From contig CM097885.1 of assembly GCA_044892525.1 (NCBI GenBank), forward strand, positions 28,894,001 through 28,958,000: a DNA stretch of 64,000 nucleotides. The letters are read 5' to 3'. This document shows positions 14,803 to 50,200 of the stretch, in pieces (the stretch's first letter is position 1; each line of letters begins with the position of its first letter). The stretch comes from Schmidtea polychroa (lineage: Eukaryota). The position numbers and the translations under genes are program-made. The notes beneath the pieces are model-generated. The model ran no database searches and was not told the origin of the DNA. It worked only from the letters and a program-made list of their open reading frames with translations.

Positions 14803-15778
14803 AGTAGTAGGATTGGAGCTCCCCAGACCAGGAGCTCCCCGCGCCACATATACCCCCTCCCCCCCCGGGAAAAAAATTTTTTTTTTTTAATTTTTTGTTT
14901 TAATTAATTGGTCCAGCGGTGACCTACTTTTTTCTTTCCAAAAGTAATGTTCCCGCCAACAAATTTTATTGACCGATACCTCATCTTAAAGCCCAGTCCA
15001 AGACCTTTCGAATGAGCTATAGGTATCATATATATCTTTAATAGTTTTAATGTTATTAACAATTGATGACCACCATCTTTTCAACGTTAAATTATTATTA
15101 TTTTCCAAAATATTATTAATTGGCCTGGCGGGCTCACACTTTTTTTCATCCCAAAAATTAATGTTCCCGCCAACATATTATATTGATCGATAGCTTATTT
15201 TAAAGCTCTGTGCAAGAACTTTCTAATGAGATATAGATTTTTATCATACGATGACTCATCACATTTTTAGAACAAAGACAATGACTCATCATATTTTTAG
15301 AACGATGTCTAATATTTTTAGATTGATTACGTCATATTTTTAGAACGATGCCTAATATTTTTAGAACTATTACGTAATCGATGTCTAATATTTTTAGAAC
15401 GGTTACGTCATACTTTTAGAACGATGTCTAATATTTTTAGAACGATGCCTAATATTTTTAGAACTATTACGTAATCGATGTCTAATATTTTTAGAACGAT
15501 GCCTAATATTTTTAGAACGATTACGTCATACTTTTAGAACGATGTCTAATATTTTTAGAACGATGCCTAATATTTTTAGAACTATTACGTAATCGATGTC
15601 TAATATTTTTAGAACGATGCCAAATATTTTTAGAACGATGCCTCTTATTTTTAGAATGATTACGTCATAATTTTAGAACGATGTCTAATATTTTTAGAAC
15701 GATGCTTAATATTTTTAGAACTAATAATTTTTGTTTTAATTATCGATTACATAATAATTTAATTTGTTTAAATCGTTG

Positions 15779-15834
<56 letters not shown>

Positions 15835-15930
15835 CTATCCGACAAGATATTCTTTCCCCTACGGGTAATGCACACAAATGTACTACTCACACTCAACAAG
15901 TCACAAGGGTACTGTTCACAAAGTTACTGG
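14803..15930. repeat. Left TIR of element A
   Basis: Reverse complement of 26320-27476 and 9480-10780. Contains a poly-C tract, 21/22-bp arrays and the palindromic box. Inner boundary approximate. Confidence 0.9.
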
Positions 15931-15986
15931 TAAAAATATTCAAGACAAAACTTTCTAAATTCTAAATATTATTCTTTAAATATACA

Positions 15987-16268
15987 CTAAAATTTATTAA
16001 CACATTCACATTCATCATCTCCACAGTTCATAAAATTTTCAACAACATGATCTATACAATCCCTATATACACACGGTTCAGTATCCGTAAATTCCTCCAT
16101 AGGTTCATCAATTTCTTGAATGTTTTCCTCATCATCTTGAGTGTTTTCTTCATCTGTTTCATCAAATTCCGAATCTTCACTCTCTGCTACCCAGTCTATA
16201 TTTAATGCGTTTGTAACAGATAATATATCCGCCTTTTTCACACCAGATATTTCTGCTAATTTTTCCAA
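15987..16268 (-). CDS. Small acidic protein with Cys-rich C-terminus, unknown function (probably the last exon of a spliced gene)
   Basis: 93-aa ORF with no ATG start. A closely similar copy lies at 51033-51314. Confidence 0.6.
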   Translation of the reverse strand: MEKLAEISGVKKADILSVTNALNIDWVAESEDSEFDETDEENTQDDEENIQEIDEPMEEFTDTEPCVYRDCIDHVVENFMNCGDDECECVNKF

Positions 16269-16441
16269 TAAAAAGTTTATTATAAATTCTAAATATTAAA
16301 TAATTCGATAATTAACTAATCATATTAACCTTTTTCTGTAGTCATTATTAGTATTTTAAAACTATAGTATATATTTGTTTATAGAAAATATAGAATATAA
16401 GCGAAAACAAATATGACTAAATACATTTATTAAATACAACA

Positions 16442-16861
16442 TTAAAATAACTGTGAAAGTCTAGCAGACATAATTTTCCAAATTGGAGAATACACATCAT
16501 TATTATCAACTTTATATCCTTGGATTGTAATTGTTATATACCAATTTTCGTTTTCTTTGAAACTGATTTCATCAAAGGAATCATAAAATTTTGCATATCG
16601 GTTGTTGAAAAATGCATTTTGATTGCATGATAGATTCGTATTCAACCTTTTGAAAACATCATCTATGGTTTTAATATCTAACATTGAAAGCGTGCCGGTT
16701 AAGAATTGAAATTGGGTAGGAATTAACTTGATCGGTGACACCAATTTCATATTGATTTCTTCTTTTAAAAAATACATTTTGTAGTTGTGGAACATTTGAA
16801 CAGGTTGTACAAGTTCTGGAACTACTTTTGGTTTTTCAGTGCTTGAAATTTTCTTGGTCAT
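16442..16861 (-). CDS. Polinton hypothetical protein, 139 aa
   Basis: ATG-started non-repetitive ORF, with TATAAAA about 35 nt upstream on the minus strand. Confidence 0.7.
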   Translation of the reverse strand: MTKKISSTEKPKVVPELVQPVQMFHNYKMYFLKEEINMKLVSPIKLIPTQFQFLTGTLSMLDIKTIDDVFKRLNTNLSCNQNAFFNNRYAKFYDSFDEISFKENENWYITITIQGYKVDNNDVYSPIWKIMSARLSQLF

Positions 16862-16969
16862 TGTGAATTATGATTAAAATGAAATGGTACAGGGTTTTTA
16901 TACCTATGACTATTGTTTATCATCCAATCAGATTGCAGTATGTTTTTGTTTTAATTGAATGATAAATAA

Positions 16970-17434
16970 TTAATTAAGTGATAATAAAAAATCTAAAAAT
17001 TCTTTTCCTTCAATTATTGATTTAATTTCAGATATGATATTATCAACTATACATTTGTAATCAATATTTTTTATTCCAAGAATTACTATCTTACGGCTAG
17101 CGAATATATTTACACACATAGGGTTATATTTTATATATCTCAAAGCTGGAAATAATTCTGGTTCATAAAAGCATGGTATTAATTTAGCTAATTTATTTAA
17201 ATTACAAGAAAAACCTATATCGGAAGTTACGGTTATCGATTGTATTTCTAAATCATAAACATTATATTCACTAGCTTTGATTATTTCCTTACACCCCATA
17301 ATTCTACATTTACCAGTTTTGAAATATATTATTGGATATTTATTACTTCTATTGATAAGTTGTTGTGGTTTCCCTATTGGAAATACCATTTTTGATACAT
17401 CAGTTTTTGCCCTGTAATTTATATTTGAAAGCAT
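16970..17434 (-). CDS. TATA-binding protein (TBP)-like protein encoded by the Polinton
   Basis: Two TBP-type repeats: LSNINYR..IIYFKTGKCRIMGCK and IQSITVTSDIGFSCNL..YEPELFPALRY..NIFASRKIVILGIK. Compare TBP LIFSSGKMVCTGAK, IQNMVGSCDVKFPIRL, YEPELFPGLIY, LIFVSGKVVLTGAK. Confidence 0.9.
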   Translation of the reverse strand: MLSNINYRAKTDVSKMVFPIGKPQQLINRSNKYPIIYFKTGKCRIMGCKEIIKASEYNVYDLEIQSITVTSDIGFSCNLNKLAKLIPCFYEPELFPALRYIKYNPMCVNIFASRKIVILGIKNIDYKCIVDNIISEIKSIIEGKEFLDFLLSLN

Positions 17435-17538
17435 TTTAATGAAATAATTTTAAAAACTTTGATATATATAGGTATTTAAAAACAGAGTTCATTTAAATTA
17501 TCAATATAAACAATAATTATATAGTTTAAATTTAAAAA

Positions 17539-18177
17539 ATGGAATTACGAAATGATGCAGTATACCAAATCGTTGGTCCAAGTGGTAGCGGGAAAACTTT
17601 ATTTGTTTGTAAATTACTAAAATCAAATTTGTTTAAAACAAAATTCAACAATATTTATTGGCATAGGGGCGCCGACGAAGAACACGGATTGACGCAATCA
17701 AGTTTCTGTCAGTTGAAAAACATGAAAATAGTAAAGGGCTTTGATAAAAACTGGTCAAGTCGTTTGAAGAAAGATGATGTCATCATTATCGATGATTTGT
17801 ATCAAGAAGCCAATAAAGAAAAGGACTTTAATAATTTATTCACAAAAATCAGCAGACATGTTGGTGTAACAGTTATTTTCATAACACAAAATCTATTTCA
17901 TCAAGGTGGTGCACATCGAACACGTAATTTAAATGTACAATATTTAGTTATTTTCAAGAATCCTAGAGATGCAACTGTCATTGATTTTCTTGGACGACAA
18001 GCATAACCTAATAACCGTAATTTTCTTATCAGTGCATTTCAAGATGCCACGAAAATACCGCATGGGTATATATTTCTCGATTTCACACAACAATGCCCTG
18101 ATGATATACGGGTAAAAACAGATATTTTCAAGCCAAAAGGTGCCATGGTATATAAACAAAGTTCAAAACAAAGTTGA
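17539..18177 (+). pseudogene. A32/FtsK-like packaging ATPase with an in-frame TAA at 18004-18006
   Basis: Walker A GPSGSGKT, Walker B IIIDD, SRH and ITQNLF motifs. The frame continues after the stop (PNNRNFLISAFQDATKIPHGYIFLDF..RVKTDIF) to TGA at 18177. Confidence 0.92.
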
Positions 18178-18190
18178 AAACATATAAATC

Positions 18191-18685
18191 ATGTTTTCAA
18201 AAACAAGGATATCGGGTAAAAAACAACCAAAAGTTCCACCAACAACTAGTTATACTCCATCTAAAGATCTTATTACAGAAAATTTTCCTGCAATGAATCT
18301 TATTTCGAAAAATCCTAAACCTAAACCTAAAAGTAAAACCACTAAGAAAGTAAAAGTTGTTAAAAATCATCGGAGTTTCCCGTTTTTCAATACATTGTTA
18401 AAGGCACCAAGTATGAAAAGAAACAGTATTTTGCAATCTTTTCCAAATTATGTTGTCGATGATTTACTCGATATTATACTTAAAGTAGTCAAAGGCAAGA
18501 TTAAAATCAGTAAATCTAAAAAGCAATTATTGAGTAAACATAGGAAACCTTTGCTATCATTAGTAAATAATAAAAATCGTCAACAAATGAGAAAAATTAT
18601 ATATAAACAACAAGGGGGATTTATCGGTGCATTGATACCTTTAGCAATATCATTATTAGGTGGAATAATAGGAAGTCGATCATAA
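18191..18685 (+). CDS. Basic virion protein with adenovirus pX-like C-terminus
   Basis: Lys-rich. Ends QQGG|FIGALIPLAISLLGGIIG, similar to the adenovirus pX GGFLPALIPII motif and an adenain cleavage site. Confidence 0.7.
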   Translation: MFSKTRISGKKQPKVPPTTSYTPSKDLITENFPAMNLISKNPKPKPKSKTTKKVKVVKNHRSFPFFNTLLKAPSMKRNSILQSFPNYVVDDLLDIILKVVKGKIKISKSKKQLLSKHRKPLLSLVNNKNRQQMRKIIYKQQGGFIGALIPLAISLLGGIIGSRS

Positions 18686-18746
18686 ATAATGGGTGCTAAT
18701 CCTTCATTACCAGACATTAAATTTAATATTAAATCTTCTTGTTGTA

Positions 18747-19802
18747 ATGGAGAAGATTTGGACGAACCCGGAAGACGAAGCCGGTTTTGGTGGAGTGGCA
18801 AAATTAAGGAAAAGAGTTCCGAATTCGAAAAAGGAAACTCAGAAGTGGTTATCAGACCAGCTTGCGTACAGTTTGAACAAACCAATGCGGAAACGATTCC
18901 CAACAAGAACATATAAAACATATGGAATAAATGATTTATGGCAAATGGATTTGATGGAGATGATACCCTATTCGAAAATTAACAATGGGTATAAATATAT
19001 TTTAACATGTATTGATGTATTCAGTCGGTTTGCCCGAGCAATACCCGTCAAGGCAAAATCTGCAGATGAAATGTCCAAAGCTGTTAATCATTTATTTAAA
19101 GATAGACATCCTAAAAACTTGCAAACTGATTTAGGTATTAATATTATTATTTTTATTATTATTATTATTATTTTAGGTAAAGAATTCTACAACAGTAAAG
19201 TCAAGCAAATCCTCAATAAATTGAAAATAAACCATTACTCAGTACATTCTCAATACAAAGCTGCTCATGTTGAAAGATTTAACCGAACTTTGAGAGATAG
19301 ATTAAAGAAATTATTCGTGCATCAAGGTAATAAAAAATGGGTATTGGTTTTACCAAAAATAATAACCAGTTATAATCACTCATCACATCAAGGACTGAAT
19401 GGATTAAGGCCGATTGATATCACGTCAAAAACAATCTATTCTAAAAAACCTGAAAAAATTACAAAACCGAAATATAAAGTAGGTGACCATGTTAGAATTA
19501 GTAAAATTAGTGCATCACCATTTATTAAAAATTTTGATACGAATTGGAGTGATGAAGTCTTTGTAATTTCAAAAATAAATACTAAACAGAATCCTGTAAT
19601 GTATGTCATCAAAGATAATGATAACAATATTGTACAAGGAAAATTTTATGAGCAGGAATTACAAGTTATTCCTCCCCCAAAAGTATTTAGAATTCAGAAG
19701 ATATTGAAAACTAAAAATAAAGGCAAGGATAAACAATACTATGTCAAATGGCATGGTTATCAAAACCCATCATGGATATCAGAAAAGGATCTAGTAAAGT
19801 GA
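18747..19802 (+). CDS. Polinton retroviral-like (rve) integrase with C-terminal chromodomain-like region; 42-nt intron at 19135-19176
   Basis: Motifs WQMDL, TD(LG)KEF after splicing, VERFNRTLR and YYVKWHGY. ATG at 18747 is the assumed start. Confidence 0.95.
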   Translation: MEKIWTNPEDEAGFGGVAKLRKRVPNSKKETQKWLSDQLAYSLNKPMRKRFPTRTYKTYGINDLWQMDLMEMIPYSKINNGYKYILTCIDVFSRFARAIPVKAKSADEMSKAVNHLFKDRHPKNLQTDLGINIIIFIIIIIILGKEFYNSKVKQILNKLKINHYSVHSQYKAAHVERFNRTLRDRLKKLFVHQGNKKWVLVLPKIITSYNHSSHQGLNGLRPIDITSKTIYSKKPEKITKPKYKVGDHVRISKISASPFIKNFDTNWSDEVFVISKINTKQNPVMYVIKDNDNNIVQGKFYEQELQVIPPPKVFRIQKILKTKNKGKDKQYYVKWHGYQNPSWISEKDLVK

Positions 19803-20815
19803 ATTTTTATACTATTTTACCAAGCAATAGTTGCCCGCTTATTCATCCAGATAATCAAGCCAGTAAATTCATGGTCAATCTCCAGAATCCGATTTCTTTA
19901 AATGGTGACTGGGAAGTTGCACTGCAAGATTTTACATTCGTGTACAATACATTCCCATTTTATAGTCAATGTAAGATTGATTTCAAAAGGAATGCTATGA
20001 AAACATGTAGTGGTATCTTTATTATCAGTAATTATGATAAAACATATCATATTCCGAATCAAATATTAGATCAGCATTGCACTATGTTTTACAAGGATGG
20101 ATTAAATATCAGTTGTGATTTTAAACCATTTACAATAACATTCGAATATATTGAAGATGCCAGACGAATGGGTTGCAATAAGTTGAAAAATGAAGTTATG
20201 GAAACAGAATATTTATTACGCTTTGATCTATTTGAAGCAAACAGTGTAATGAGAGAAGAAATCAAAATTTCAGTGTCGTATAATAATGAAGTTGAAGAAT
20301 CATTCACCTTCGCTGACGAATTATATATTGATAAACTTGATGTGTTACTTAAATATTTAAAGTATAATTGTTCACACATATTTAAAAGTTTGGATATTGT
20401 GAAAGATTTGTTATTTACCTTCAGTTTGAATGATGACATTTGCGAAGTTACATTTGATAAAAATTTGACAAATACACTTGGATTAGAGAAGCAGCAATAT
20501 CGGGAAAAATCGGCTGGTATACGTAAACCAAGAATACTTGAACATCATCAACAAATGTTCATATATACTAATATTATTGAGCCTATAATAGTTGGTGATT
20601 CCAGTGTTCCTCTATTGAAATCGGTGTGGATTGGAAAATATGAACATGATGAAGTTGTCAATATAAATATAGATAATCCCATGTATTTACCAATTTCAAG
20701 CTCATCTATAAACAATATAGAAATAAATATTCGTGACGATAGTGGAAAACTTATAAATTTCCCAAAAGACTCAAAAACTCATTTGACACTACATTTTCGT
20801 AAAGTAGATGGCTAA
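19748..20815 (+). CDS. Minor capsid protein (penton, Polinton PX)
   Basis: FYTILPSNS..N..S.F.V.L..PI.L.GDWEVAL at the N-terminus. FIYTNIIEP.IVGD..VPLL..Y.P..INNIEINIRD..G..I.F..TLHFRK at the C-terminus. Confidence 0.88.
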   Translation: MAWLSKPIMDIRKGSSKVNFYTILPSNSCPLIHPDNQASKFMVNLQNPISLNGDWEVALQDFTFVYNTFPFYSQCKIDFKRNAMKTCSGIFIISNYDKTYHIPNQILDQHCTMFYKDGLNISCDFKPFTITFEYIEDARRMGCNKLKNEVMETEYLLRFDLFEANSVMREEIKISVSYNNEVEESFTFADELYIDKLDVLLKYLKYNCSHIFKSLDIVKDLLFTFSLNDDICEVTFDKNLTNTLGLEKQQYREKSAGIRKPRILEHHQQMFIYTNIIEPIIVGDSSVPLLKSVWIGKYEHDEVVNINIDNPMYLPISSSSINNIEINIRDDSGKLINFPKDSKTHLTLHFRKVDG

Positions 20816-21170
20816 TTCCGATATTATTAGTATGTATAGTGATAGCCAATCTGGTGGTGAATTACCATATTTTATTGGTAAACAGTATGGATCAGGTTGG
20901 TTAAAAACAATAGGGAGATTTGCACTTCCCATTCTTAAACGTATTGGTAGTTTTGGCATGAAAACTGCAAAAGATGTGATTATGAATGAACAGAAAATAT
21001 TACCATCCCTAAAAACAAATGCTTTAGCTGAGTTTGGGAAGGTTCTACCTGGAGTTGCTGGTATGTTTCAAAAAGATACACCTCCAGTCCCAGCTCCAAA
21101 ACGTAAAGTACATGGAATATCGCGTATAAACAAACGAATGAAAGGACATGGAACTATATTTGCAAAATGA
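20808..21170 (+). CDS. Small basic virion core or membrane-active protein
   Basis: QSGG and QYGSG protease-site-like motifs followed by amphipathic WLKTIGRFALPILKR. It lies between penton and MCP and overlaps both. Confidence 0.7.
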   Translation: MANSDIISMYSDSQSGGELPYFIGKQYGSGWLKTIGRFALPILKRIGSFGMKTAKDVIMNEQKILPSLKTNALAEFGKVLPGVAGMFQKDTPPVPAPKRKVHGISRINKRMKGHGTIFAK

Positions 21171-22390
21171 TTTGTGGTAAATCCGAATTATGTATATTTG
21201 ATAGACCATCGCCCCAGGCTGTAATAGAATTTGGTGCCTTTGAGGAAGTTTTTCCTATGAATTCAATTACTGATAGTAGAAATGATATCGAGTTTTATAT
21301 TAATGGTTCGCAAACTGAATATTTAGATTTGAACGATACTTTATTGACTGTTCAGATCAAGGTTGTAGATAAAGATAGAAAGGTTTTGGATGCCAATGCG
21401 GATGTATTACCAAACAATTTCATGTTTCATACTCTGTTTAAAGATGCAGTGTTGGGATTTAATAATATCAAGATTGAGGGTGGAAATAATACATTCATTC
21501 ACAAGGCTTTGATAGAAACTATTTTAAATTACAATTCAGATACTAAAAATACCTGTCTTACACCTATGGGTTATGCAGCAGCAGATGATGAAAGAAAAAA
21601 GTGGGTTAAAGGTTCAAAAGTATTCACTATGTGCTCATCATTACAACTTGATTTTATGGATCAACCGAAATATTTACTACCGGGAGTTAATATACATATT
21701 AGACTGAAAAGATCTGATTCTTCATTGTCTCTTACTAGTGCAACTGGTGCACCAATATGTCAATTAGTTGATGCAAAATTATTGGTGAGAAGAGTTCGAG
21801 TAGACCCGTCAGTATTAGCTGGTCATCAATTGGGGCTCAATTCAAAACATGCAATTTATCCTTTAAAAACAAAGGAAATTGTACAATTTGCTATTGCAAA
21901 AGGTGCTTCATCATTCTATAAAGAACAAATATTTGGTGACAGAAGAATGCCTAATTTTATTCTGGTAACATTTCAAAGTGAAACGCAATATAATGGATCG
22001 TATACTGCTTCCAGCTCAATTTTCAAAAATTTTGGTGTTACTTCATTGACTTTATCGAAAAATACTGATTATAGAGAAACATATACTCAAGATTTCGAGA
22101 ATGATAATTACTGTGCGACATATATGCAGAGTATTGTTAGAAATCTGGGTTATTTAGATAAAAACTTGAATTGCGGAATAACTCTTGAAGAATTTAAAAG
22201 CAAATACCCATTTTTCACATTTGTTCTAGCTCCCGATTTTGATTTAAATCAGAGTCAATTACCACAAAACGGGAATTTACGACTGGATATAAAGTTTGCA
22301 AAGGCCATTACTGAACCAGTACATGTTATAATATATGGAGTATTTGAAAATGAAGTTCAAATTACTGCAAATAGAACCGTGCTAGTATAA
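21167..22390 (+). CDS. Major capsid protein (double jelly-roll, Polinton PY)
   Basis: 407 aa with KSEL.IF, IEFYI.G..EYLDLNDTLL, QPKYLLPGV.I.IRL and G.LRLDIKFA motifs typical of Polinton MCPs. Confidence 0.9.
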   Translation: MICGKSELCIFDRPSPQAVIEFGAFEEVFPMNSITDSRNDIEFYINGSQTEYLDLNDTLLTVQIKVVDKDRKVLDANADVLPNNFMFHTLFKDAVLGFNNIKIEGGNNTFIHKALIETILNYNSDTKNTCLTPMGYAAADDERKKWVKGSKVFTMCSSLQLDFMDQPKYLLPGVNIHIRLKRSDSSLSLTSATGAPICQLVDAKLLVRRVRVDPSVLAGHQLGLNSKHAIYPLKTKEIVQFAIAKGASSFYKEQIFGDRRMPNFILVTFQSETQYNGSYTASSSIFKNFGVTSLTLSKNTDYRETYTQDFENDNYCATYMQSIVRNLGYLDKNLNCGITLEEFKSKYPFFTFVLAPDFDLNQSQLPQNGNLRLDIKFAKAITEPVHVIIYGVFENEVQITANRTVLV

Positions 22391-22802
22391 ATGTATACAG
22401 AAACACCAAAAAGTTGTCATGGAGTAAGTTTTTCAATACTGTTTAATTTATTAAAGTAGTTCTGTTCAGGTCAATAGAATTGGAAAACAGATATTGGGAA
22501 ATGAATTTGTAGGAGTTTTTCCTCTCGATAAAATCCCATATTTGAGCAATAATCAAGCCATAATCGTCAATACTCAATCGTCTCATCTTGGTGGAGAACA
22601 TTGGATTGCTATATATGTGAAACCTAGTAATATATTCGTGTTCGATCCTATGGGTTTCTATTACCCTGCTTTGTTGGTATCAAAACTACAAACAATGGGG
22701 AAACCTATTGTATATAATAAAACAATGTTTCAAAATCCCTTGACACAAACATGCGGTCAACATTGTTTAGCTTGGTTGTTGTATAAAAAATTTGATGATT
22801 AA
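22391..22802 (+). CDS. Adenain-like cysteine protease (probable 46-nt intron at 22424-22469)
   Basis: FVGVFP.D, VNT, GEHW (His), FDPMG (Asp), Q..TCGQHC (Gln/Cys). ATG 22391 joins the frame through a phase-0 GTAAGT..TTCAG intron. Confidence 0.9.
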
Positions 22803-22832
22803 TAAATGTATTTTGTATCCTTTGTTGTTGTT

Positions 22833-22863
<31 letters not shown>

Positions 22864-22936
22864 TTATTTTATTATTATTATTATTTTATTATTATTATTA
22901 TTATTATTATTAATATTATTAATATTATTATTATTA

Positions 22937-23009
<73 letters not shown>

Positions 23010-23023
23010 ATTATTATTATTAT

Positions 23024-23054
<31 letters not shown>

Positions 23055-23154
23055 ATTATTATTTTTAATTAAATTTATTTTGAAAAATATTATTATCTAA
23101 CTACACAAACAATGTGCATGCACAAAGATATGCAATCCCATTTGATACCATTTG

Positions 23155-23238
23155 ATTGGCTGATAGAGGAAAAAGTATTCAGGAATGTGTCTTAATTCTG
23201 ATTGGTTGAGACATGGAAATATTCCTGTTCTATATAAA
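23155..23238 (+). promoter_or_regulatory. Putative Pol II promoter of the element A PolB gene: two inverted CCAAT boxes plus TATA
   Basis: ATTGG at 23155 and 23201, TATATAAA at 23231, ATG at 23297. The same layout precedes PolB in element C. Confidence 0.55.
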
Positions 23239-23296
23239 CATTGACAATTCTAAAATTCGTCATAATTATTCTTAAATTTACAAATTTTAAATTAAA

Positions 23297-25450
23297 ATGA
23301 ACGCTGATTTACACAAAATTTTGAATGCCATGTTGATGGGTGAAAATGGTAAATTATTTAGTTATTATTATTATTATTTTTATTTATTATTTTAGAGAAT
23401 TTATGGTACCAAGTGACTGAAGATGATTCAATTTTGAATGTTGATAGGATTTTCGGTAAATTTAAATATTTTAATTTTTATGAAATTATTATTTTATTTA
23501 GAACCTATTATAATTAGCGACGATGATGATGTCGTGTTTATTGGGCAAAATGATGCCCCGGATAATGATGCCTTATTTGTTAGGCAAAACAATGTTTTTA
23601 ATGAACAAAGTAAATTTATTTTATTTTAGTATATTATTTTTTAAAAATCATTTTAGTGTTTAATGTTGACATGGACGCTGAAATCGATGTTCCAATTAAT
23701 AATGATTCTATTGAGGAGATGAATAATGCACTGACTTCTATCGATGAGCTGAATTATGTGGATAATACAATCGAGGAGCTTGTTAATGTGGATAATGCCA
23801 TCACTTCTATTGAGGAGGTTGCTGATAATGAATCAGATTCCGACATGGAATCACGATGTTAGTATTTATTTATTTTTATATATTTATTTTTTTTTTTTAA
23901 AAACCTTGTAAATTTCTTAAATACTTTTTAAACATTTTCTTTAAAAACTTATTTATAAAAACTTATTATGAAAATGAAGAAAATATTATGTTGAAATTGA
24001 AAATGTTATGTTGACTAAATGATGAAAATATTATGATGAAGAAAATGATGAAAATATTATGATGAAGAAAATGATGAAAATATTATGATGAAGAAAATGA
24101 TGAAAATATTATGATGAAGAAAATGTTTAAAAAGTATTTAAGAAACAATAGTTTTAAAATATTCCTTGTAGTTTGCAATGAGCAACTACATTAGTTAAAA
24201 TAATAATAATAATAATAATAATATTAAAAATAGTAATAAAAATATATCTTGTAGTCTGCAGTGAGCATGCAGCTACATATCTCTTTTATTATGATTGCCC
24301 CAATAAATGTAGTCTGCAGTCAGCATGCAGCTACATATCTCTTTTATTATGATTGCCCCAATAAATGTAGTCTGCAGTCAGCATGCAGCTACATATCTCT
24401 TTTATTATGATTGCCCCAATAAATGTAGTCAGCTGTCAGCTGCATCAAATATTTATTACATAATAAATACCCTTTATTAAATGTAGTCTGCATGCAGCTG
24501 CATCAAACTATTTATTACGTAATAAATACAATCTTTAAATGTAGTCTGCATGCAGCTGCATCAAACTATTTATTACGTAATACATACCCTTTATTAAATG
24601 TGTCTAAATGCAGCTGCGTCAAACTAAATATTTATTACGTAATACATACAATCTTTAAATGTAATCTGCATGCAGCTGCATCAATAATGATAATAATGAT
24701 AATAATAATAATAATAATAATAATAAAATCACACATTTATAGTTTACAAGACTTTATTAATATAAATACAATTTCATGATTAATATTAATTGATAAATAT
24801 AATTAACAGGCAAATTATATCCACATTACTGCCAGGCTTCAACTGGTCACTCAAATTTATGTCACAAAGTGATGAAAAAATATTATGGTCGTAAATTTTA
24901 TGGCATCAAGTACTATATATGCCCAATATGCGAGACTTCCCATAGCATTAAATATTTAGAGTTTTACAGTATACATAAATCCCATTTAAATCAGTTCTCT
25001 TTAAATAAAAAGGATTTATTTAACAAACTACGAAATACTGCAAAACCTATAATTAAAACTAATGTAAATAATACAAAACCTGTAAATAATATTACAAAAC
25101 CTGTAAATAATAATACAAAACCTGTAAATAATATTACAAAACCTGTAAATAATATTACAAAACCTGTAAATAATAATACAAAACCTGTAAATAATATTAC
25201 AAAACCTGTAAATAATAATACAAAACCTGTAAATAATATTACAAAACCTGTAAATAATATTACAAAACCTGTAAATAATAATATAAAACATGTAAATAAT
25301 ATTACAAAACCTCTAATTAATAATGTTATTAATGTAAATAATAATTTAAAAAGACCTGCTGTTAGTATTGGGTCTGATGCTCCCTCTAAAATTAATAAAT
25401 TAGAACAAATAACTGTGGTTAATAATATTCAAGTAGGCGGTTCAGTATAA
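23297..25450 (+). CDS. Five-exon N-terminal part of the element A PolB gene: acidic domain, Cys/His domain, (NNxTKPV)n repeat
   Basis: Exons 23297-23348, 23396-23455, 23502-23609, 23657-23857 and 24810-25450. All introns are GT..AG phase 1 and give one open frame. The Cys domain aligns with the ORF at 43326 in element C. Confidence 0.75.
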
Positions 25451-25949
25451 GGAATGGGTTTTCTTAAGACCCAAGTGCTATAGTTTGTTAGGGGCTAAAG
25501 ATCATTTAAAGGCAAAAGGAGTTAGGTTAATAGGTACAGAAATTAGGCACGAATCATATTTAGAATGCTACAATAACGACGTAGTATTTTCTGTGCCACA
25601 AAGTAGGATAGGGACGCGGAACCACCAATTGTACACATTTAAAAACAATAAAATCGCGTTGACAAACAACGACGACAAGCGGTTTTGGGTGGGGAAAAAT
25701 TCCAGTCTCGCATTTGGTCATTATTTAGCACTAGATGATATAAATGATGATCAAATATTTGAAGAAGTTGGGCCACTATTCGGAGGATTAAGTCCAGATT
25801 TTGTTTCTGGTGATGAGGAAGTGGGTCCACTTTTCAATGGTTTAAGTCCAGATTTCGATTCTGGTGATGATCCTAATGATGAAATTGATATTGACGATGT
25901 ACAATTGAGTGACGAAATTGATATTGATGATGTACAATTGAGTGATTAA
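25443..25949 (+). pseudogene. C-terminal remnant of protein-primed PolB, fused out of frame after an internal deletion
   Basis: QYKEWVFLRPKCYSL..KAKGV..DDKR..LAFGHY, nearly identical at its start to element C PolB. Acidic repeated tail. Confidence 0.9.
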
Positions 25950-26319
25950 GCGATTTTAATATCTTTTTCCTGTGATAAATAAATATAACTTTGTAAAAAC
26001 ATTGATTTGTGTTGATTTTTATTAATGAAACGTTTTCGTATTTCTTTCTATGGATAAAAATCATTATATTGTGTAATATTATTAAACATTCCTTAAGTGT
26101 TTAAACATAGAAAGTATATTAAAATTTGTTTTATTATTGAAAACTAGTAATGTTGTCACTATGGAACAGGACTTTGTTTTGAGCCATTAAAAGAATTTAA
26201 ATTTTTATAAAGTTTTATTATTTTTATTTAATTTGATAATACTGTTCATATTTACTTTAGTTTACAGTGAGCATGTAACTAAATATCTTTGAAAAAATAA
26301 TAATAATAATAATATGAAC

Positions 26320-26430
26320 AGTACCCATGTGACTTGTTGAGTGTGAGTAGTACATTTGTGTGCAGTATCCATAGGGGGACAGAATATTTTGTCGGATAGA
26401 CTAGGAGTATATAATAATTATAAATATAAT

Positions 26431-26514
<84 letters not shown>

Positions 26515-26632: not shown

Positions 26633-26692
<60 letters not shown>

Positions 26693-34273: not shown

Positions 34274-34282
34274 AAACTTTAC

Positions 34283-38851: not shown

Positions 38852-40004
38852 CTGGAAAATTGAATTGACAGTTAAAAATTAAAAATCTTTTATTAAATAT
38901 TATTGGAATAAAAGGTTTGTACACCAAAGCGCATAAATTAATTTATATATAGAAAAAATAATTATTGAGGAGGTATTTATTATGGAAAATCAGAAAAATA
39001 ATATTGGTAAGAAAAATAAAATATAACACACACAAACATACACTACACACAACAACTCCATATGTAATATAAATACACACATGAAGACAAAAATACACCT
39101 AATTGCGAAAGTTAAAATAGCCTATAATCTAAAAAAATCAATAAATATATATTATAGGAACAAACAAACTTACCAGTGTGTAAAAATTTAATGCTGCGAA
39201 AGGTAACATATTTATTATAGAAATCTAAAAAGTGAGAGAAAATAATTAATCATACAAACACAGTACACATGATGAAAAATAGATACTAAATTAATAAAGT
39301 GTTTTTTTTCGAAATTAACATTGATCTTTAATATTTTCAAATTGTTTAAAAAGTTATGCACAAAAAAACTTTTGAATCATATTCCGACTGTTCTACCTTG
39401 AGCTTCAGAGAAAAAGAAGAAAATACATCGTAAGATTTAATTATAAAATAATTTAGAATATAAAATTTCTTTAGATTTACAGATATTGAAGAAGGTCCTT
39501 CGACATCTTTGAATTTGCAGAAAATAAATCGCAAAACGTAAATTTTTATAAATTATTTTAACAAATTAATATTTTCATAGAATTACAGAAAACGACAAAA
39601 TTCGAAAAAAGATTACAAAAACTTAAAAACTATTTTATCCATTCTTTCCTAAATGTCTTAAAAATAAATGTTTGGTGATTACTTTATTTATTTATAATTA
39701 TAAAAATATCTAACTTACATTTTTACGAAATAAATCCAAATAAATCCAAATAAAATGTCATAAAATTCCTAAAAAACTCCTGAAATTTAATTATTAATAT
39801 GTTATATTATAAATGCTGCCTAAAAGTAATATTTAAGAACTTGAATAATGATCTCATAATTATATAAAATCAAAATTCCAGTTCTAAAAATTACTTAAAT
39901 TCAAAAACGATTTTTGAAAAATTGAAAAAATGAAATTAAGTTAACATTGTCATATAAATGGTGACTCACCTCAACTGGTGTGCACACCAACGTATATTAT
40001 AGAC

Positions 40005-41185: not shown

Positions 41186-41804
41186 TAATTACTCCATATA
41201 AATTATTGTCAAGAATTTATAACTAATTATAGAAGTATCACATTTTAAATTATGAAATTTATTGAATTGTTAAATAGACATTAGTAGTATATAATGAGGA
41301 CTACAGGACACTTTCAAGGTCATGGAATATCAAGATCAAATATAGGTCAATTGAATCATTTATTTATTATTTTTTTTAAATTAACCTTTGCATAGATCTC
41401 TTCAAGACCTTTCGAATGATACCCTGCTTTGAAAGTTTGACCTTAATAATTTTATTTTGTCAACTTTTTCGTCAAAATAAGTTTTGAAATTTAAATTTTA
41501 AAATACCGCAACGTAATATATTTAAAATACCGCAACGTAATATATTTTTAAAAAAAAATTTTAAAAAAAAATTTTAAAAAAAAATTTTAAAAAAAGAAAA
41601 AAAAGTACCCCCTCCCTCGGGGGGTGGGGTGGGGTATGACGTAATTTTATTTATGACGTCATCGATTACGTAATAGTTCTTTGTTCCCGGCTCCACACAT
41701 TACCCTACTCTACTGTTTTTTCTCTCTCTTTTTCACCCCTTTGTCTCTTTTCTCTAAGTGCGATTGGGATTTAAGTCTAACTATGTATAGGCAGAATTTA
41801 ATTC

Positions 41805-42540
41805 TCTACAACATGGCTCAATTAAAATTTTAGTTTGGTGTTTAGTGTGTAATACACACATGTTTTTACGATTAATTTGTATTTTTCGCGCGGTTAACGT
41901 AGTTTTCTTGGATTTTTATTCATATATTATATAGATAAAATTTAATTTTCTATAAAATGGCTCAATTACAATTTTAGTTTGTCGCTTTGTGTGTAATACA
42001 CATGTTTTTACGATAAATTTGTATTTTTCATACAGTTAACGTAATTTTCTTAGGATTTTATTCATATAATATATAGATAAAATTAAATTTTCTATAAAAT
42101 GGATTGATTAGAAATTATGTATCTTGTTCTGTGTGTAATACACACACATGTTTTATGATAAATTTGTATTTATTATACGTTAACGTAATTTCCTTGGATA
42201 TTTATTCATATATTATATAGATAAAATTTAATTTTCTATAAAATAGCTTGATTAAAAATTATGTCTCGTATGTTGTGTGTAATACACACATGTTTTTACG
42301 ATAAATTTGTATTTTTCATACAGTTAACGTAATTTTCTTGGATATATATTCATATAATATATAAATAAAATTTAATTTTCTATAAAATGGATTGATTAGA
42401 AATTATGTATCTTGTTTTGTGTGTAATACACACATGTTTTTACGATAAATTTGTATTTATTATACGTTAACGTAATTTCCTTGTATATTTATTCATATAT
42501 TATAGAGATAAAATTTAATTTTCTATAAAATGGATTGATC
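41805..42540. repeat. Five ~145-bp tandem repeats inside element C
   Basis: Recurring ctataaaatgg..gtgtaatacacacatgtttttacgataaatttgtattt..gttaacgtaattt unit. Confidence 0.9.
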
Positions 42541-43326
42541 TAGAGTTTAAAATGTTGTATTATTTTATTACTTTGTTGCAATATTTTTATAATCTTATAA
42601 CAATTTGCTTAAATATTTTACATCTGGTGAAATATTTCCGAAATATGTTATTACTTTGTTGTAATTTACTGAAAGACTTCACAATTTATTACAATATTCT
42701 TTTTAATTTGTTGTCCGTCTTCGAAATAATGTATTGATTTGTCCCAATTAACATCATTATTTTATTACTTTGTTGCAATATTTTTATTATTTTAGTTACA
42801 ATTTGATAAATATTTTACAACTTTGTTGAAATTTTCTGAAATATGTTACTACTTTGTTGTAATATTTTCTAATCTTGTTACAATTTGCTTAAATATTTTA
42901 CAACTGTTGAAAATTTATCTGAAATATGTTATTACTTTGTTACAATTTTATGAAAACGTTATTACTGTTTTGCAATTTGATGAAAAATGATATTACTTTG
43001 TGGGTTCATCACATTATTTTTTATTAAATTATTATGAAAATGTTAAATAAGTCAACTTTAGCATCAAAATGTGTTTTAAAATATATATAAGTTTTAAAAT
43101 ACTGCAACGTAATGCATTTATTTTTCATAACCCTTCCTTGATTTTGATTGGTCAGAATATATTTATTTTTCCTACCTCTTCCTTGATTTTGATTGGTCAG
43201 AATTTAATCATGTGTAATATATAAGCAGTAACTTTTCAAATGTTTGTCATTTAAACTTTTAATTTAACTTATATAAGTGAATAATTTTTTATTCTCTATC
43301 TAATATTAATGATTATTTTCTTTTAG

Positions 43327-46300
43327 TGAACGGATGCAGTTTATATAAATTTTGTATTGCCGAAAGTCATGAAGATGTGGAGAACTGTAAATCAGTTACA
43401 TCATATTTCAAGATAAATGACTGTACCTTATCGGGTTACATATGTCCGGAATGTCTCATTATATCACCAGGTTGGTGGTTAATGTTTGTACGACAACACG
43501 GACACCATCTTAGAAGATTCGAAGAAACGAAGAGCAGCATGATCACTAAAAGTAATACTCTTTCTACTATTAACAATTATTAATTTTTTTTTATAGTACA
43601 ATCGAAAATGAATACATCATACGATCCTAAGCAGATTAAAGAATATGTTACAAGTTATGTTATTTAAGTTGTTTAATATTAATTATAAATATAGTTAGAC
43701 AAAACTCTGGCACCACAAAACGAAAGTCAATATTTTACGGAAATGGAGACTCTAACATACAATTGTGTCCACGTCGGGAGTCTGACTTAAATGGTTCTCG
43801 TGTTGAATTAACAAGCGATGTATCTGCAATTAATTCTCCTGACATTGTTGTTCCAGATTGTCTCATCAAAAAAATAGAAGATCATATTCAACGAATGGGG
43901 ACAGTAAAAATCGAATTTGGACTTTGTGCAGAGTTTATCAAAGAGGATCGTGAAATTAAAAAATGGTGTTTGTCGAATAAAGCAATTACAATGTCATCTT
44001 CATTTATAAATGATGTAATTGAAAAATTAAAAGAAAAGTTGGAGAAATACACTCAACAAAGTAGTGGGTGGAGAATTCATAAAATATTAGAAGTTACTAT
44101 GATTTTAACTAAATTATCAGACATAATACATGTATCTGGTAAGTTTATTTACATTATTATATATATAAATCAAGATATTTACTTAGGTTCATGTTACATT
44201 AAAACGCCAAATTACCTGAAAAACTGCCAGGCTTTAGTTAATGTTCAAAATAATGATCAATTCTGCTTTTTATATAGCATACTGGCCGTATTACATTATG
44301 ATGACATAAAACACCACAGAGAAAGAGTAATGAAATATAACTTAAGTGGTAATATATATATTTATAAATGTCATAAATCATTGAATTTTGTTTTTAAGAC
44401 TTAAAATGGAAATTTGAATGGTTTCCGATGAGGTTGGTTAAAATTTGCCAATTTGAGGCAATGAATCCTAATCTAGCGATCAATGTTCTCAAATATAATA
44501 AAGATCCAATTAAACAAAAAACTAATGATATTTTCAAGAATCCGTTCGTTGACTTGGTATATAGAAGTACTTCGACGGGATCTCAATTATATCTCTTATT
44601 GATTGAAGAAGGTAATATTTCCTTTAATCATTAAAAATATTAACTAAATTTTAGAATTAAATTATCATTTTTTGGCTGTAACCAATCTCGATCGACTGCT
44701 GAATTACAGAGATAAAGTAGAAGGAGTCTGAATTCAATCACAATGGTGTCATACATGTCTTCATGGGTTTCGAAAACGTCCTGCTTTTGAAAGACATATA
44801 GGTCTTTGTAGGAAGAATGTGGAGCGGACGACTCTATACTCAATGCCAGAGAATAAATATATCGAATTTAAAGACTGAAGTAAAACTATAAAACAGCAGT
44901 TTGTTGTCTACGCGGACTTTGAATCAATATTACCTCTAGATGACAAGCACTTCCAAAAACATGAGCCGATTGCATCTGAATTTGTGCTTCTTCATCAAGG
45001 TTGTCCGATCCGAAATGAAACATTTGTTGGGAAAACCTGTATCATTCAGTTCATACAAGCATTGGATGATATAGCTACAGACATAGTTTATCCGTGGTAT
45101 AAAATTAATGGATCAAAGGAAATGATGGAACTCACTTGGGAACAGCAGGAAGAATTCACGACTCAAAAGATTATCAATATACCTGTTCGGGATCATGATC
45201 ATTTTACCGGTCAATATCTCGGAGCAGCGTGTCAAGATTGTAATTTGGCTAGAAGAATCAATCCGTCTTTACCTGTTGTATTTCATAATCTTCGTGGATA
45301 TGACATTCATCATATATTAAAATATGCAATTGGAAAATTCCCCGATTGGAATTTAAATGTTATTCCTCAATCAACAGAAAAGTTTCTCACACTTACAGCG
45401 ACATTGAAAGGCAGAAGATTTAGATTCATTGATTCTTTACAATTTTTAAATAGCAGCTTGGCAAATTTATCAAAAGATTTACCATGTCTTCCACTGACCT
45501 CAGATGTTTTTGAATCACAGATGATGACTTGTAAAACCATTTTTCCTTATGATATGGCTACATCAATGGATGTTTTACAGTCAATAACAGAATTACCACT
45601 GATTTTGGAGGGAGTTAGTGAAGAAGATTATATACATGCAAATCGAATCTGGCAACAATACTACTGTGAGACACTGCTAGATTACATGCTAGTATATCTC
45701 AAGCTGGATGTTTTTCTGTTGGCCGATGTTTTCGAAGCTTTCAGAGAAAAAAATTTGACGAAGATGGACATGAGGCTCTATCGTTTGTTTCCATACCCGG
45801 ATTAAGTTGGGCATCAGCTATTAAACAGTTACCTGAACCGGTAGAACTTATTCAAGATCCAGAGCTTTACCGTTTATTTGAAGCTGGTATTCGTGGTGGA
45901 ATGACATTTATCAAGAAACATCATGTTGAAGCTGATGAATCAACACAAATGTCATACCTAGATGTTAATAATTTATATGGATGGGCGCTGTCGCAAACAC
46001 TTCCTGTTGGTGAATTTAGATGGATAAATGATCAGACTGAAATGAATGGTATTGTTGAAAGATGTGCAAATGGGGATGAGTTTGATTGAGATCGTGGATA
46101 TGTTCTAGAGGTTGACATCGTCATTCCTGATAGTATACAAGATAAACTAGATGATTTACCTATAGCTCCTGAGCTTTGTTATCCGCCTGGTAGTAAAGTT
46201 GAAAAGCTGTTGTTAACTCATGAGCCTAAGAAAAACTATGTAGTTAATGGTAGAGTTTTGACAGAGTGGTTGAGTTACGGCGCAAAAGTCACAAAAGTTA

Positions 46301-47238
46301 ATCGTGCTGTAGAATTCAAACAAGTGGCAATTTTCAAATGATACATTGATTACAATACCAAAATGAGAGCAGCTAGTACGGATTCGTTTCAGCGAGATTA
46401 TTATAAGTTAAAGAACAACAGTTTATACGGTAAAACTGTGGAAAACTTGAAGAAACGTATAAATTTGAGATTATGCAACAAAAGCAAAAGATTGATAACT
46501 TATTGTAGTCATCCTATGTTTCGTCGTAGCATCAAGATTGCGGATGATCTCATTGCTGTTATACTCAATAAGGAAATTGTGTGTTTAGATAGACCAATGT
46601 ATATTGGACAAACCGTACTTGATTTATCCAAACTTCGCATGTACTAATTTCAATATAAAGAACTGCAGAGTTATAGAGAAGAATTCAATTGTCAAATTAA
46701 TATCGTAGCTGGTGACACAGATTCCTTCTTCTAAGAGTGTAAAAATGTAGATTTACGCTTACAACTATATCCAAAAATGATTGAAGATGGGCTCCTAGAT
46801 ACTTCAAATTATCCAGTGACCGATCCGTTGTCCTCTGATAAAATTTGTTCTGTAATCGGGAAAGTTAAGGATGAGAATAAAGGAAATCAATATAAAGAAT
46901 GGGTGTTTCTTCGACCCAAGTGCTACTCACTCCAAGGCGATAAAGACACTCTAAAAGCCAAAGGAATAAGTCTTACAAACTCTAATCTTACACATGAAGC
47001 CTATAAAAAAGTGTATACTGATGGTGGAACAGTGAGCATCCACCAAAAGAGAATAGGAAGTGTTAATCATCAGTTGTATACTTTCATTACAGAAAAATGA
47101 GCTCTCCAATGTTTGGACGATAAAAGGTATTGGTACAATTGTAATGAAAGTTATGCCTACGGTCATTATAAGATTCGTCAAATGCATATTGCAACTGCTA
47201 TGTCTAGAAATGAATGCAAATCGAAACAAGCACTTTAA
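43327..47238 (+). pseudogene. Intron-containing protein-primed family B DNA polymerase with several stops and frameshifts
   Basis: Motifs VNVQNNDQFCF, YADFES (ExoI), RDHDHFTG..ACQDCN, FHNLRGYD (ExoII), YLKLDV (ExoIII), YLDVNNLYG (A), KLKNNSLYGK (B), GDTDS (C), RPKCY and DDKR. Introns at 44139-44186, 44349-44398 and 44612-44654. Confidence 0.95.
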
Positions 47239-50200
47239 CAATTAAATTTATGTGAATAATAAAATATATATTGTGAATTGTTTGACTTAGTTAATTAAAA
47301 TGTGTTTTATCATTTAATTATTCATTTGTCCAATTAATTTAGATAATTAGTTTCAAGTAAGAAATATTATTTTTGTGTTTATTTTATTTATTTTTTCCGA
47401 AAAATTAATATCCGGTTTATCCAAAATTAACTCAGCCTTTTATTTTATAATAAATTAAATAATTTCTAATTAAAATTTTATTCAAATTGAATAATTACTA
47501 ATTAAAATTTTATTCAAATTGAAATATTATTGTTATAATTTACCTCTTGTTAGAATATAATGTAAATGTAAAATTAAAAAAAAATAATAATAATAATAAT
47601 AATAAATAAATAAAATAATACTAAAATAAAAACATAATAAAATAATTAATTAAGAAAATTAAAAAGAAAAAAAAATAAATAGAAGTAATTAAATAAAATT
47701 TAAATTAAAAAATAAATAAATTAATTAAAAAAAAATAAATAAAAATAAAAATAAATAATAATAAAGCGTAAGTAATTAAAATAAAATATTAATAAACTAA
47801 TAAATTAATTAAATGTAATAAATTAAAAATTAACTAAAGTAAGTAATTAAAATATAACATCATAAAATAATTAATTAATAAAATTAAAAAGAAAAAAAAA
47901 TAAATAGAAGTAATTAAATAAAATTTAAATTAAAAAATAAATAAATTAATTAAAAAAAAATAAATAAAAATAAAAATAAATAATAATAAAGCGTAAGTAA
48001 TTAAAATAAAATATTAATAAACTAATAAATTAATTAAATGTAATAAATTAAAAATTAAATAAAGTAAGTAATTAAAATATAACATCATAAAATAATTAAT
48101 TAATAAAATTAAAAAGAAAAAATTAAAAAGAAGTAATTAAATAAAATGTTAATTTAAAAAAAAATAAATAAATAAATGATTCAATTGACCTATATTTGAT
48201 CTTGATATTCCATGACCTTGAAAGTGTCCTGGAGTCCTCATTATATACTACTGACATTATCAATATTTTTAAAAATTAATGAATCCAATCACCCATAATT
48301 TATATAATTTACATATCATTATGTCAGTTGCAATAACTTTGAAATAATTAATTTAGGAAGTCGTGTTAAAAGTTAACAAGTACAATTTATTATGAACATG
48401 TGTTATCAGACAAATATAAGAGACTATTTTTATTTTAATAGTTTCATAATATTATTTTTTCGATATTTCATTAAATTTATTGAAAATTATAAAATAATGC
48501 AAAGTTACAAATAAAAAAGCAAGGCAATGTGAAACAATTTAAACGCAAATTGAAAATTGAGTGTCAACAATGTATGCTACACAAACGGAACCAATGCAAA
48601 GTTATGTATTTGTGTATTTTCCTATTTATTAATTAAAAAATTTCAATTTTTCCAATTACACTTTTCAATATTTGGAATTATAATTTTAACTGACTTTTAA
48701 TTTCCAACATTTCCAAATTTTGTTTTTTAACATTTAATATATTACCATTTGTAATTTTTGACATTTTACACAGTTTACATTCTCATAAAGTCTGGTAATT
48801 GAAATAATATTTTCTTATTTTTATGGTCGCTTGATTTTATTTCCAATGATTAAACATTAAAACAAGACAAATTAACTAATTATGAAATATAATTAATTTA
48901 TTAACTAAATCTTTACGTTTCTCTTGAAAAACTTAGAATTTTTTATTAACCAAATTAAACGCTTGACTAAAAATTTTGAGTAAAATTTTCAATAGAATTG
49001 CTCATTGATGCATTTATTTTTAACACGAAATTACAGCTTAAGAGTAAGAAAAGGAGAAATTCAAATCATACAAAAAACCTTTTAAGCAATTGTAAATTTC
49101 ATAATTTTTAATTACAAAAATTTGTTTTTCGATGTTTTAAACAAGTTATTAATTGATTAATTAAAATTAATTAATCTTTTAATTAATCTTTTAAAGCAGT
49201 CTTTCTCAATCTGATATGCGATAAGTGATGAATTATTAATGAAAACAATATTTTGTGTGATTTTCACATTTATGTTCGGCGTAAAGATTTCGTTTATTTG
49301 CTGGACAAAACTTTTAAGAAAAAAAATGACGAAATAAGGTCATTCCTTGAATATCTAGTAAGTTTTAAGGCCCGTTTTTTTAAAATATTTACCTCCTGGT
49401 GCACTACTGGTACGGTACACCACATTAAATAGATTGGGAACCTCTGTTTTAAAGAGTTAAAAACAAATTCCATTATATATGATCTAAAAGTACAAATAGT
49501 AAAGTTTAAATGACATTACTCAATTTTTATATTTGCATAAAATAAATATTTACAGTAAAAATAATGGTGTCACACAGTCCAATTATAATTATGTTGAGGA
49601 TACCTAAATAACAATTTATAAAGAAATAAATAAAATTACCTGGGGGGAAATCGCCATGACAAAAGGGACTCTAATGGAACTCAGAAAAGAAAACGGAAGT
49701 AAAAAGAAACTAAAAATGAGAAAGATAAAGGAAATAAAAGGAATCAAACAGGAAAATAAAAACTAAGGTCAGTACTAATTAATTAGTACAAAAAGGAAAA
49801 GGAATTTTGAAATCGGGGAAAAAGGAAAACAACAATATCCTTATCTCGACAGCTTGCCAGTGATAACAGAATTAATGGGAGAAGGCGGTCAAGCAAAAAA
49901 AAGGAAAATAACTTGACAGATGTCAGAGATAAAAATGGAACAGTCGGGGAAAGCAGGAGAAAGAAAATGGGAAAACAATTGATTATCTGGAGTGCCACAA
50001 GAGAAGCAAACTATATAAAGGAAAACTGGAGAACAAAATTAGAGACAAAAGTGACGCGAAATTGACACAATTTGGAAGACGATTTGAGTGACAATTTGTG
50101 AGATAATTTAGGAGATAATTTGTGAGAGAAAATTAGACAACGTCGGACGAAACGTTGTTGGAGAAACGATAGTGAAAAAGAATTGTAAAGAAAATAATTG

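Follow-up and report, generated by a model that had tools for sequence, protein, structure and literature searches.

Polymerase-only palindromes and polymerase-less forms related to Polintons in the genome of Schmidtea polychroa

Polintons (Mavericks) are recognized by (AGT)2 ends together with target-site duplications (TSDs) of 6 bp, and the vertebrate elements are intronless (PMC8097293). Their definition requires both pPolB and an integrase (PMC5499653), and nine Polintons without capsid, protease and ATPase genes are known (PMC4028283). We analyzed two Polinton-related elements, A and C, in a stretch of 64,000 nucleotides from S. polychroa (the window; G000:C1:28894001-28958000), which lies in an AT-rich genome of 781 Mb. 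The sequence-only reading of the window took A, which carries capsid and integrase genes without a PolB core, and C, which carries PolB alone, for complementary halves that either had been truncated after insertion or were circulating as trans-complementing, bipartite-like derivatives. Complementary halves fail as a description of these two copies, but PolB-only and PolB-less forms do circulate at the family level. A is a one-off deletion and C a dead one-armed copy, and we think it likely that the PolB-only and PolB-less forms spread as helper-dependent elements, with complete A elements probably supplying what is missing.

The A family has the same genes as described Polintons, its capsid genes being probable, and C and the part-genomes share the Polinton end type and TSD (PMC8097293, PMC5499653, PMC4028283, PMC6431247). 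C has no integrase and a recurrent A-derived form has no PolB, unlike the definition in PMC5499653, and short introns are predicted here, in contrast to the vertebrate elements (PMC8097293). By the definition of PMC5499653 C is not a member of the Polintons; it acts like a Polinton-derived satellite. Its closest analogies appear to be the snap-back genomes of adeno-associated virus (AAV), linear plasmids that arose by capsid-module loss, and the capsid-less Polintons. AAV snap-back genomes are likewise mirror-image part-genomes that keep the replication or the capsid end and need the complete virus; they arise afresh from their parent, whereas C is heritable, has a diverged, selected polymerase, and is chromosomal with TSDs (PMC8235507). 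No same-sequence parent of C was found in the 71 C-family loci read, whereas fold-backs derived from A do have one. The linear plasmids found in the cytoplasm of yeasts arose from Polintons through capsid-module loss and are copied by a terminal-protein-fused pPolB (PMC11071308); C differs from them in having one gene only, hundreds of sites of residence within nuclear chromosomes, and apparent spliceosomal introns. Transpovirons are linear, about 7 kb long, with inverted-repeat ends, lack capsid genes and are borne by a helper virus, but they are mimivirus parasites with an SF1 helicase whose polymerase domain is inactivated, whereas C has a selected pPolB and gave no helicase match; the resemblance in size extends to the 7-kb one-armed derivative of C only (PMC5499653).

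In 10.1101/2025.02.07.637071 we found nothing on such forms. We found no account of palindromic PolB-only or recurrent PolB-less Polintons in the literature searched, and repeat libraries or supplements may contain them. The bipartite bidnaviruses pair a segment carrying PolB with another that has the same ends, and the two are obligate partners; here, in contrast, complete helpers are abundant. A deletion derivative of pGKL1 is said to have a hairpin form with a palindromic dimer. Kapitonov and Jurka reportedly put forward a panhandle replication model for Polintons in 2006, and are said to have described non-autonomous Polintons as simple gene-less deletions moved in trans.

PolB-only palindromes of the C family

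The terminal pattern of C has 553 exact matches in the genome, against 0 for the control. We read 71 C-family loci, 14 of them obtained by likeness to the whole of C, 18 by likeness to its left part, and 39 by position from the list of ends. The full form consists of two arms of about 6.5 kb, each with a PolB gene pointing outward, separated by a spacer of about 300 nt. In ten near-complete palindromes, 12.6-14.2 kb long, the TSDs are direct and the flanks are not mirrored. Both ends were called for 33 elements, and in 32 of these the TSDs match, one pair being a duplicate and the single miss lying within a TA run. Alignment of two-armed copies revealed one common fold-back junction in 10/10 (these copies were picked by their spacer and are thus a biased sample), and the identical junction occurs exactly at 209 places in the genome. 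Contigs from two of four public sequencing runs span it, these coming from two studies, one of which is possibly the source of the assembly; it was not bridged in runs from two other organisms, where its absence is not established.

PolB is the only gene that we recognized in these elements. An unbroken C-family copy matches PF03175 with 109 bits, and C frames yield PF03175 alone. After 13 sister arms had been dropped from 60, 47 independent elements remained, and 18 of them retain the last PolB exon without a break. Variants found in at least five elements comprise 53 nonsynonymous and 73 synonymous changes and no stops (ratio of nonsynonymous to synonymous rates, dN/dS, 0.19); singleton variants comprise 310 nonsynonymous changes, 111 synonymous changes and 26 stops (dN/dS 0.72). 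The shared variants are therefore under purifying selection, which most likely postdates the fold-back, as a single centre is common to subfamilies that differ by 3%. The C family has thus copied itself in the form of a PolB-only palindrome. A young group consists of five loci that are 99.5-99.9% alike, and the two arms within an element differ by 0-0.7%, a value no greater than the distance to the nearest other element in 13/13 cases. Two elements (L055 and L056) with different TSDs have in common one symmetric deletion by which both arms lost PolB; they are a gene-less subfamily dependent on C.

Two side observations concern the distribution of the family. A run of 21 C-type ends on a single strand, many of them 4.4-4.6 kb apart, lies near the contig start (G000:C1:381578-1220774, L120) and is a tandem array built from C fragments. 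Targeting of C into other Polintons was suspected from single cases and did not hold up, a Polinton protein being found within 500 bp outside 2/57 C ends and 9/60 A ends, with no random background for the comparison.

Element C of the window is a palindrome of this family with its left arm reduced to 107 nt, and is organized as follows.

41283-48252 (+): element C, one-armed decayed copy of the PolB-only palindrome family; TSD GACATT
41283-41389 (+): remnant of the left arm, seen as a 107-nt terminal inverted repeat (TIR), fused to the spacer at a 3-nt microhomology
41383-41685 (+): spacer of about 300 nt at the centre (loop) of the palindrome in this family, containing motifs shared with the ends of A
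41795-42976 (+): right-arm tandem repeats with units of 144 bp and 83 bp, located upstream of PolB
43281-47238 (+): C-family PolB gene (PF03175), broken, with seven stops and one frameshift in the last exon and a leader probably split by short introns
47570-48252 (+): right end of C, including its AT-rich subterminal repeats

The giant-palindrome nature of the family had been overlooked. What had been described as a PolB-only element with clean ends and a TSD of its own does contain PolB pieces only and does have the TSD GACATT, but its left end is actually the palindrome spacer; the TIR is 107 nt long, with 95% identity over 109 columns. The stop count of its last PolB exon is the highest among the 60 arms compared, and because this exon has seven stops and one frameshift and is 2.5% from its nearest relative, we regard the window C as a dead copy. 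Its PolB is broken and cannot stand as the complementing enzyme. One-armed copies of 7.0-7.6 kb do recur; their breakpoints differ, two copies of 7,641 and 7,642 bp are internally different, and the exact form of the window C was not found again among the copies read. Several AT-rich GT..AG segments of 42-65 nt break the PolB leader (L058:5526-6959; window 43281-44700) and are probably spliceosomal introns, as predicted from their sequence. Four public runs guessed to be RNA cover the C PolB as contigs, and one 13-letter loose end spans a predicted intron; we give this no weight.

These data bear on whether all of the unusual forms could be products of decay after insertion or of assembly, ordinary Polintons having been truncated or inverted in place. 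The deletion in the window A and the arm loss in the window C are both private, the one-armed copies of 7-7.6 kb have differing breakpoints, and the mirror-image flanks of one locus (L129/L156) mark it as an in-place inversion or an artefact. This explanation holds for the window copies only, however. The ten near-complete palindromes with unmirrored flanks and direct TSDs, the recurrence of the same junctions at many loci, the presence of the fold-back junction in short-read contigs of two studies, and the selection on shared C PolB variants all stand against it; at the family level it is largely refuted, and we hold it to be highly improbable as a general account.

C-type PolB was linked to an integrase or capsid gene in none of the 71 C-family loci. 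The queries were A-family proteins, which recovered relatives in the flanks down to about 25-35% identity, and the loci included 32 ends chosen by position because no partner end lay nearby. The sequence-only reading had stated that C would need an integrase in trans if it moved in this form, and this holds at the family level, as PolB-only elements insert with TSDs of their own. The integrase could have come from a complete C-ended Polinton that was not seen, of which the palindromes would be fold-back products or dependants, A being irrelevant. Three fold-backs of the A family were read, and because that family makes such structures today, C very probably began in the same way. The nearest relatives of the C PolB (62-63%) are proteins of 1,158-1,207 amino acids from other samples, and most of the 553 ends lie beyond the 71 loci read. 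On the other side, none of these loci ties the C PolB to capsid or integrase genes, including the 32 partnerless ends, and one junction is shared across subfamilies 3% apart, which points to a single origin and a long independent spread. Full-length copies were found for A-type ends and, within the 71 loci, none for C-type ends. An unseen parent of this kind strikes us as rather unlikely.

Element A and the recurrent PolB-less forms

Three elements in the window are related: A (14803-27476), C (41283-48252) and a gene-less palindrome whose right part is included (1-10780). The features of the palindrome and of A are as follows.

1-10780: gene-less giant palindrome, right part only, with an A-type end; arms at 1-2611 and 3305-5915, left end beyond the window
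14803-27476 (+): element A, Polinton copy from a young, abundant family, with its PolB core deleted privately; TSD AATTAT
14803-15720 (+): left terminal region, an imperfect TIR with short repeats, containing both motifs common to C
15990-16867 (-): two small frames of 102 and 141 codons, kept in the A family and without a Pfam family
16973-17449 (-): TBP-like gene (PF00352, 47.7 bits; cut-off 22.9)
17536-18003 (+): first frame of an A32-like packaging ATPase (PF04665, 32.6 bits; cut-off 22.8)
18690-19799 (+): retrovirus-like integrase, unbroken frame with a weak chromodomain match (PF00665, 36 bits; cut-off 32.6)
19733-20812 (+): probable minor capsid protein, by position; no Pfam family; Atlas neighbours at 0.97, mostly Preplasmiviricota, unnamed
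21107-22387 (+): probable major capsid protein; Atlas neighbour at 0.98, with a PF21738 DJR-like domain on 15% of its members
22455-22799 (+): adenovirus-type cysteine protease (PF00770, 28.8 bits; cut-off 21.3)
22820-23096 (+): (ATT)n microsatellite, where PolB-less forms at other loci switch into the arm of the gene-less satellite
24803-25444 (+): N-terminal remnant of the A PolB, which extends into PolB frames of 1334-1370 codons in 11/20 other copies
25444-25445 (+): private deletion junction, 3,047 bp lost at a 2-nt microhomology, out of frame
25445-25949 (+): C-terminal remnant of the A PolB
26743-27476 (+): right terminal region

The A family has PolB, an rve integrase, an A32 ATPase, an adenovirus-type protease, (AGT)2 ends and a 6-bp TSD, all features of Polintons. 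In the window copy the termini read AGTAGT..ACTACT, the 6-bp TSD is AATTAT, and the gene block is 99.0-99.3% identical to those of other family copies. The capsid labels are probable, as suggested by gene order, size and the Atlas lead; the two proteins gave no Pfam match and no match to a Protein Data Bank sequence, and the fold model from a single sequence has a predicted local distance difference test score (pLDDT) of 32. An in-frame AT-rich GT..AG segment inside the integrase, at about 19135-19180, is a probable spliceosomal intron by prediction.

As had been noted, the window A has no PolB core and an out-of-frame junction, which we place at 25444/25445: both ends of PolB alone are retained and fused, and 3,047 bp are lost by comparison with one natural full-length copy. 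The 215-codon frame before the junction is the PolB N-terminus by comparison with 20 loci, and not a separate gene. The junction did not recur at independent loci. Among 40 scored places only the window had it, the other 39 matching the right side alone at 99-100%, and a pattern ending at the junction, which permits four readings only, has 247 places in the genome, of which the first 100 listed comprise 99 with uninterrupted PolB and the window as the one joined copy. When loci were picked by the 3' end of PolB, the two sides of the junction lay farther apart by about 3 kb in 20/20, capsid-side genes were present upstream in 19/20, and PolB was an unbroken frame of 1334-1370 codons in 11/20. 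When places were picked by the probable major capsid gene, PolB lay downstream in 22/40 (15 read and 7 from distance). TSDs match in all three complete copies checked end to end. PF03175 scores 95-99 bits in two full-length A-family PolB copies, a match that appeared only once the repeat-rich N-terminus was excluded (a whole-length scan gave none), and it is absent from the window A. The window A is thus a one-off deletion from a complete, recently active Polinton family.

The remaining 18 of the 40 capsid-gene places have no downstream PolB (16 read, the window, and one half of a mirror structure). The 16 read represent 11 independent events, as six are copies of one insertion: all six show the flank TCTTTT and lie at two C1 places far from each other (L122, L123 and L143-L146), and this is a segmental duplication. 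In most of the PolB-less forms the sequence switches after the protease gene, within (ATT)n, into an arm of the gene-less palindrome and finishes in an A-type end, so that this arm replaces PolB. The arms of the gene-less palindrome are 99.96% alike and its centre is 693 nt long. One PolB-less junction occurs at 15 genomic places. In all 13 copies read, the whole left gene block is present, the TBP-like gene is retained and PolB is missing; the integrase frame is unbroken in 11/13, and TSDs are matching and all different in 12/13, the thirteenth not having been read to its end. Two of the copies with different TSDs are identical across 3.6 kb, and two further PolB-less junctions recur twice or three times. 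A PolB-less form with integrase and complete capsid-side genes therefore circulates, with a junction distinct from that of the window A.

Polymerases, ends and a proposed supply in trans

The PolB remnants of A and C had been called closely related. Identity between the C-family and A-family PolB is 55% over 847 amino acids and about 64% at the nucleotide level, and the two fall into separate clades, each closer to proteins from other samples; this was a quick tree of 53 rows with SH-aLRT (approximate likelihood-ratio test) support only, containing 47 of 120 homologues, and it shows separate placement, not the order of events. The best database matches for the C-family PolB are at 62-63%, besides one fragment at 96% that is probably the C family itself. 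The peptide taken as a sign of close relationship is clade-wide, YKEWxFLRPKCYS being present in 14/120 database homologues, and the Q of A's QYKEWVFLRPKCYSL was created by the deletion junction, the A family reading GYKEW. A third PolB lineage, about 27% identical to that of A, was observed at L056:6359-10000, L047:7950-9998 and L055:1004-5359, with C copies inside or beside it.

The sharing of motifs by elements with differing TIRs was borne out. Two motifs of 17 and 21 nt are exact matches between the left 320 nt of C and the left end of A (E values of 2e-5 and 6e-8), and the ends themselves are identical over the first 7-10 nt only (AGTAGTA), diverging after 8-10 nt. A and C as complementary halves of one ancestor were rejected, the A junction being a singleton, C decayed, and the PolBs 55% identical.

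Chimeric structures join the two families. In one hybrid of about 12.7 kb (L026/L037), the single TSD CTTAGA encloses a C end with the PolB arm of C, then the gene-less satellite arm and an A end; one insertion event therefore accepted both end types. Three PolB-only palindromes derived from A (L008, L075-L080) have TSDs and differing centres, their PolB being 95-97% identical to that of the A family, and a mirror-image arrangement in which one end occurs twice is thus present in the C family and in three A-derived cases. Two more head-to-head pairs of A PolB were seen among the matches to the junction pattern. The C family has no integrase, yet it has (AGT)2 ends and 6-bp TSDs of the Polinton type, and because both families end in AGTAGTA and have 6-bp TSDs, the A-family integrase most likely inserts C in trans.

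In the mechanism that we propose, the C palindrome would be copied from either end by its own protein-primed PolB, and the displaced strand would fold back into a hairpin with a 300-nt loop, the open end of which would again be an origin. Copying around the loop would then regenerate the palindrome, and a trans-acting integrase, most likely that of the A family, would insert it. This hairpin cycle is modelled on protein-primed replication with a terminal protein fused to pPolB (PMC11071308). The A PolB may in turn copy the polymerase-less capsid/integrase forms and the gene-less palindromes in trans, and template switching among genomes copied side by side would yield the chimeras and fold-backs.

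An alternative is a two-part system in which the C PolB copies PolB-less A genomes and receives integrase and capsid from them, complete elements being unneeded. It would account for the recurrence of both PolB-less and PolB-only forms as insertions with different TSDs, the integrase frame kept unbroken in 11/13 PolB-less copies, the purifying selection on the C PolB, and the AGTAGTA and two motifs shared by A and C ends together with the hybrid that has both end types. Complete A elements are as common as PolB-less ones (22/40), however, and offer a cognate polymerase; the PolB-less forms retain A-type ends, which differ from C ends after 8-10 nt; the PolBs of C and A are 55% identical; and neither the window A nor the window C is a circulating form. 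Single elements carrying all functions exist, as complete A elements with both ends and TSDs, unlike the case of a bipartite virus. Obligate bipartite complementation is not supported, and we judge this alternative unlikely.

Helper-dependent spread remains our preferred explanation. The structures, their recurrence with different TSDs, the shared C junction, the purifying selection on the C PolB and the chimeras are direct observations. Several points weigh against this reading. The helper and hairpin steps are deduced from assembled sequence; no hairpin and no extrachromosomal molecule was observed, nor any transcript or enzyme activity, and the helper link in particular is suggested by shared terminal bases and one hybrid. 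The gene blocks of PolB-less copies do not cluster apart from those of full-length A copies, and one PolB-less copy differs at 6 of 3,600 sites from a full-length copy and at 12-34 from other PolB-less copies, a pattern that fits recombination and also repeated origin at a hot spot. A private stop is present in both arms of four C palindromes, which fits arm-to-arm conversion after insertion equally well with symmetrisation before it. For L086 and L087, in which a C end lies on A-like genes, the matching far end was not found. Since 39 of the 71 C loci come from the first half of one chromosome, a rare complete C parent could exist, and a third PolB lineage is present in the genome (L056). The loss of PolB from the window A may have preceded or followed its insertion.

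A further, more tentative possibility, which we regard as doubtful, is that these are co-operating part-genomes, with a PolB-only hairpin replicon that has outlived its parent virus and is inserted by the integrase of another family, alongside PolB-less and gene-less genomes that recombine.

Window setting and implications

The separation of A and C by about 14 kb is probably due to chance. A tandem repeat with units of about 30 bp (14215-14674) lies directly left of A. To the right of A are a decayed fragment of a retroelement integrase at 28812-30238 (+), with PF00665 under the cut-off, and, at 34169-38871 (-), exons of a host gene encoding a trichohyalin-plectin-homology domain (PF13868); beyond the last frame seen of this gene, another 2.4 kb or so lead to C. 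An orphan piece at 51045-51504, in which the small-frame region of A (91%) is fused to sequence of the gene-less palindrome (95%), is adjoined by retroelement fragments at 51712-53754. At 55808-60974 (-) is a retrotransposon with identical 245-bp long terminal repeats and long gag, reverse transcriptase and integrase frames, which is an insertion of very recent date.

The window holds two cautions for annotation: a giant palindrome can be reduced to a stump that looks like a PolB-only element of 7 kb with short TIRs, and adjacent broken elements are not necessarily partners. For the biology of Polintons, action of their functions in trans and across families is indicated by the recurring PolB-less capsid/integrase genomes and by the element with two types of end, and the PolB-less forms and the hybrid also indicate that several Polinton genomes are copied side by side. 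To our knowledge, Polinton replication has been modelled and not shown in animals. The C family offers a direct test of fold-back replication, because a selected, polymerase-only palindrome of 13-14 kb with one conserved loop fits the remnant expected from protein-primed strand displacement with fold-back. If the view of co-operating part-genomes were true, the C polymerase would possibly copy polymerase-less genomes as well, and the families described here would be a natural snapshot of a virus on its way to a linear plasmid, and to a multipartite genome.

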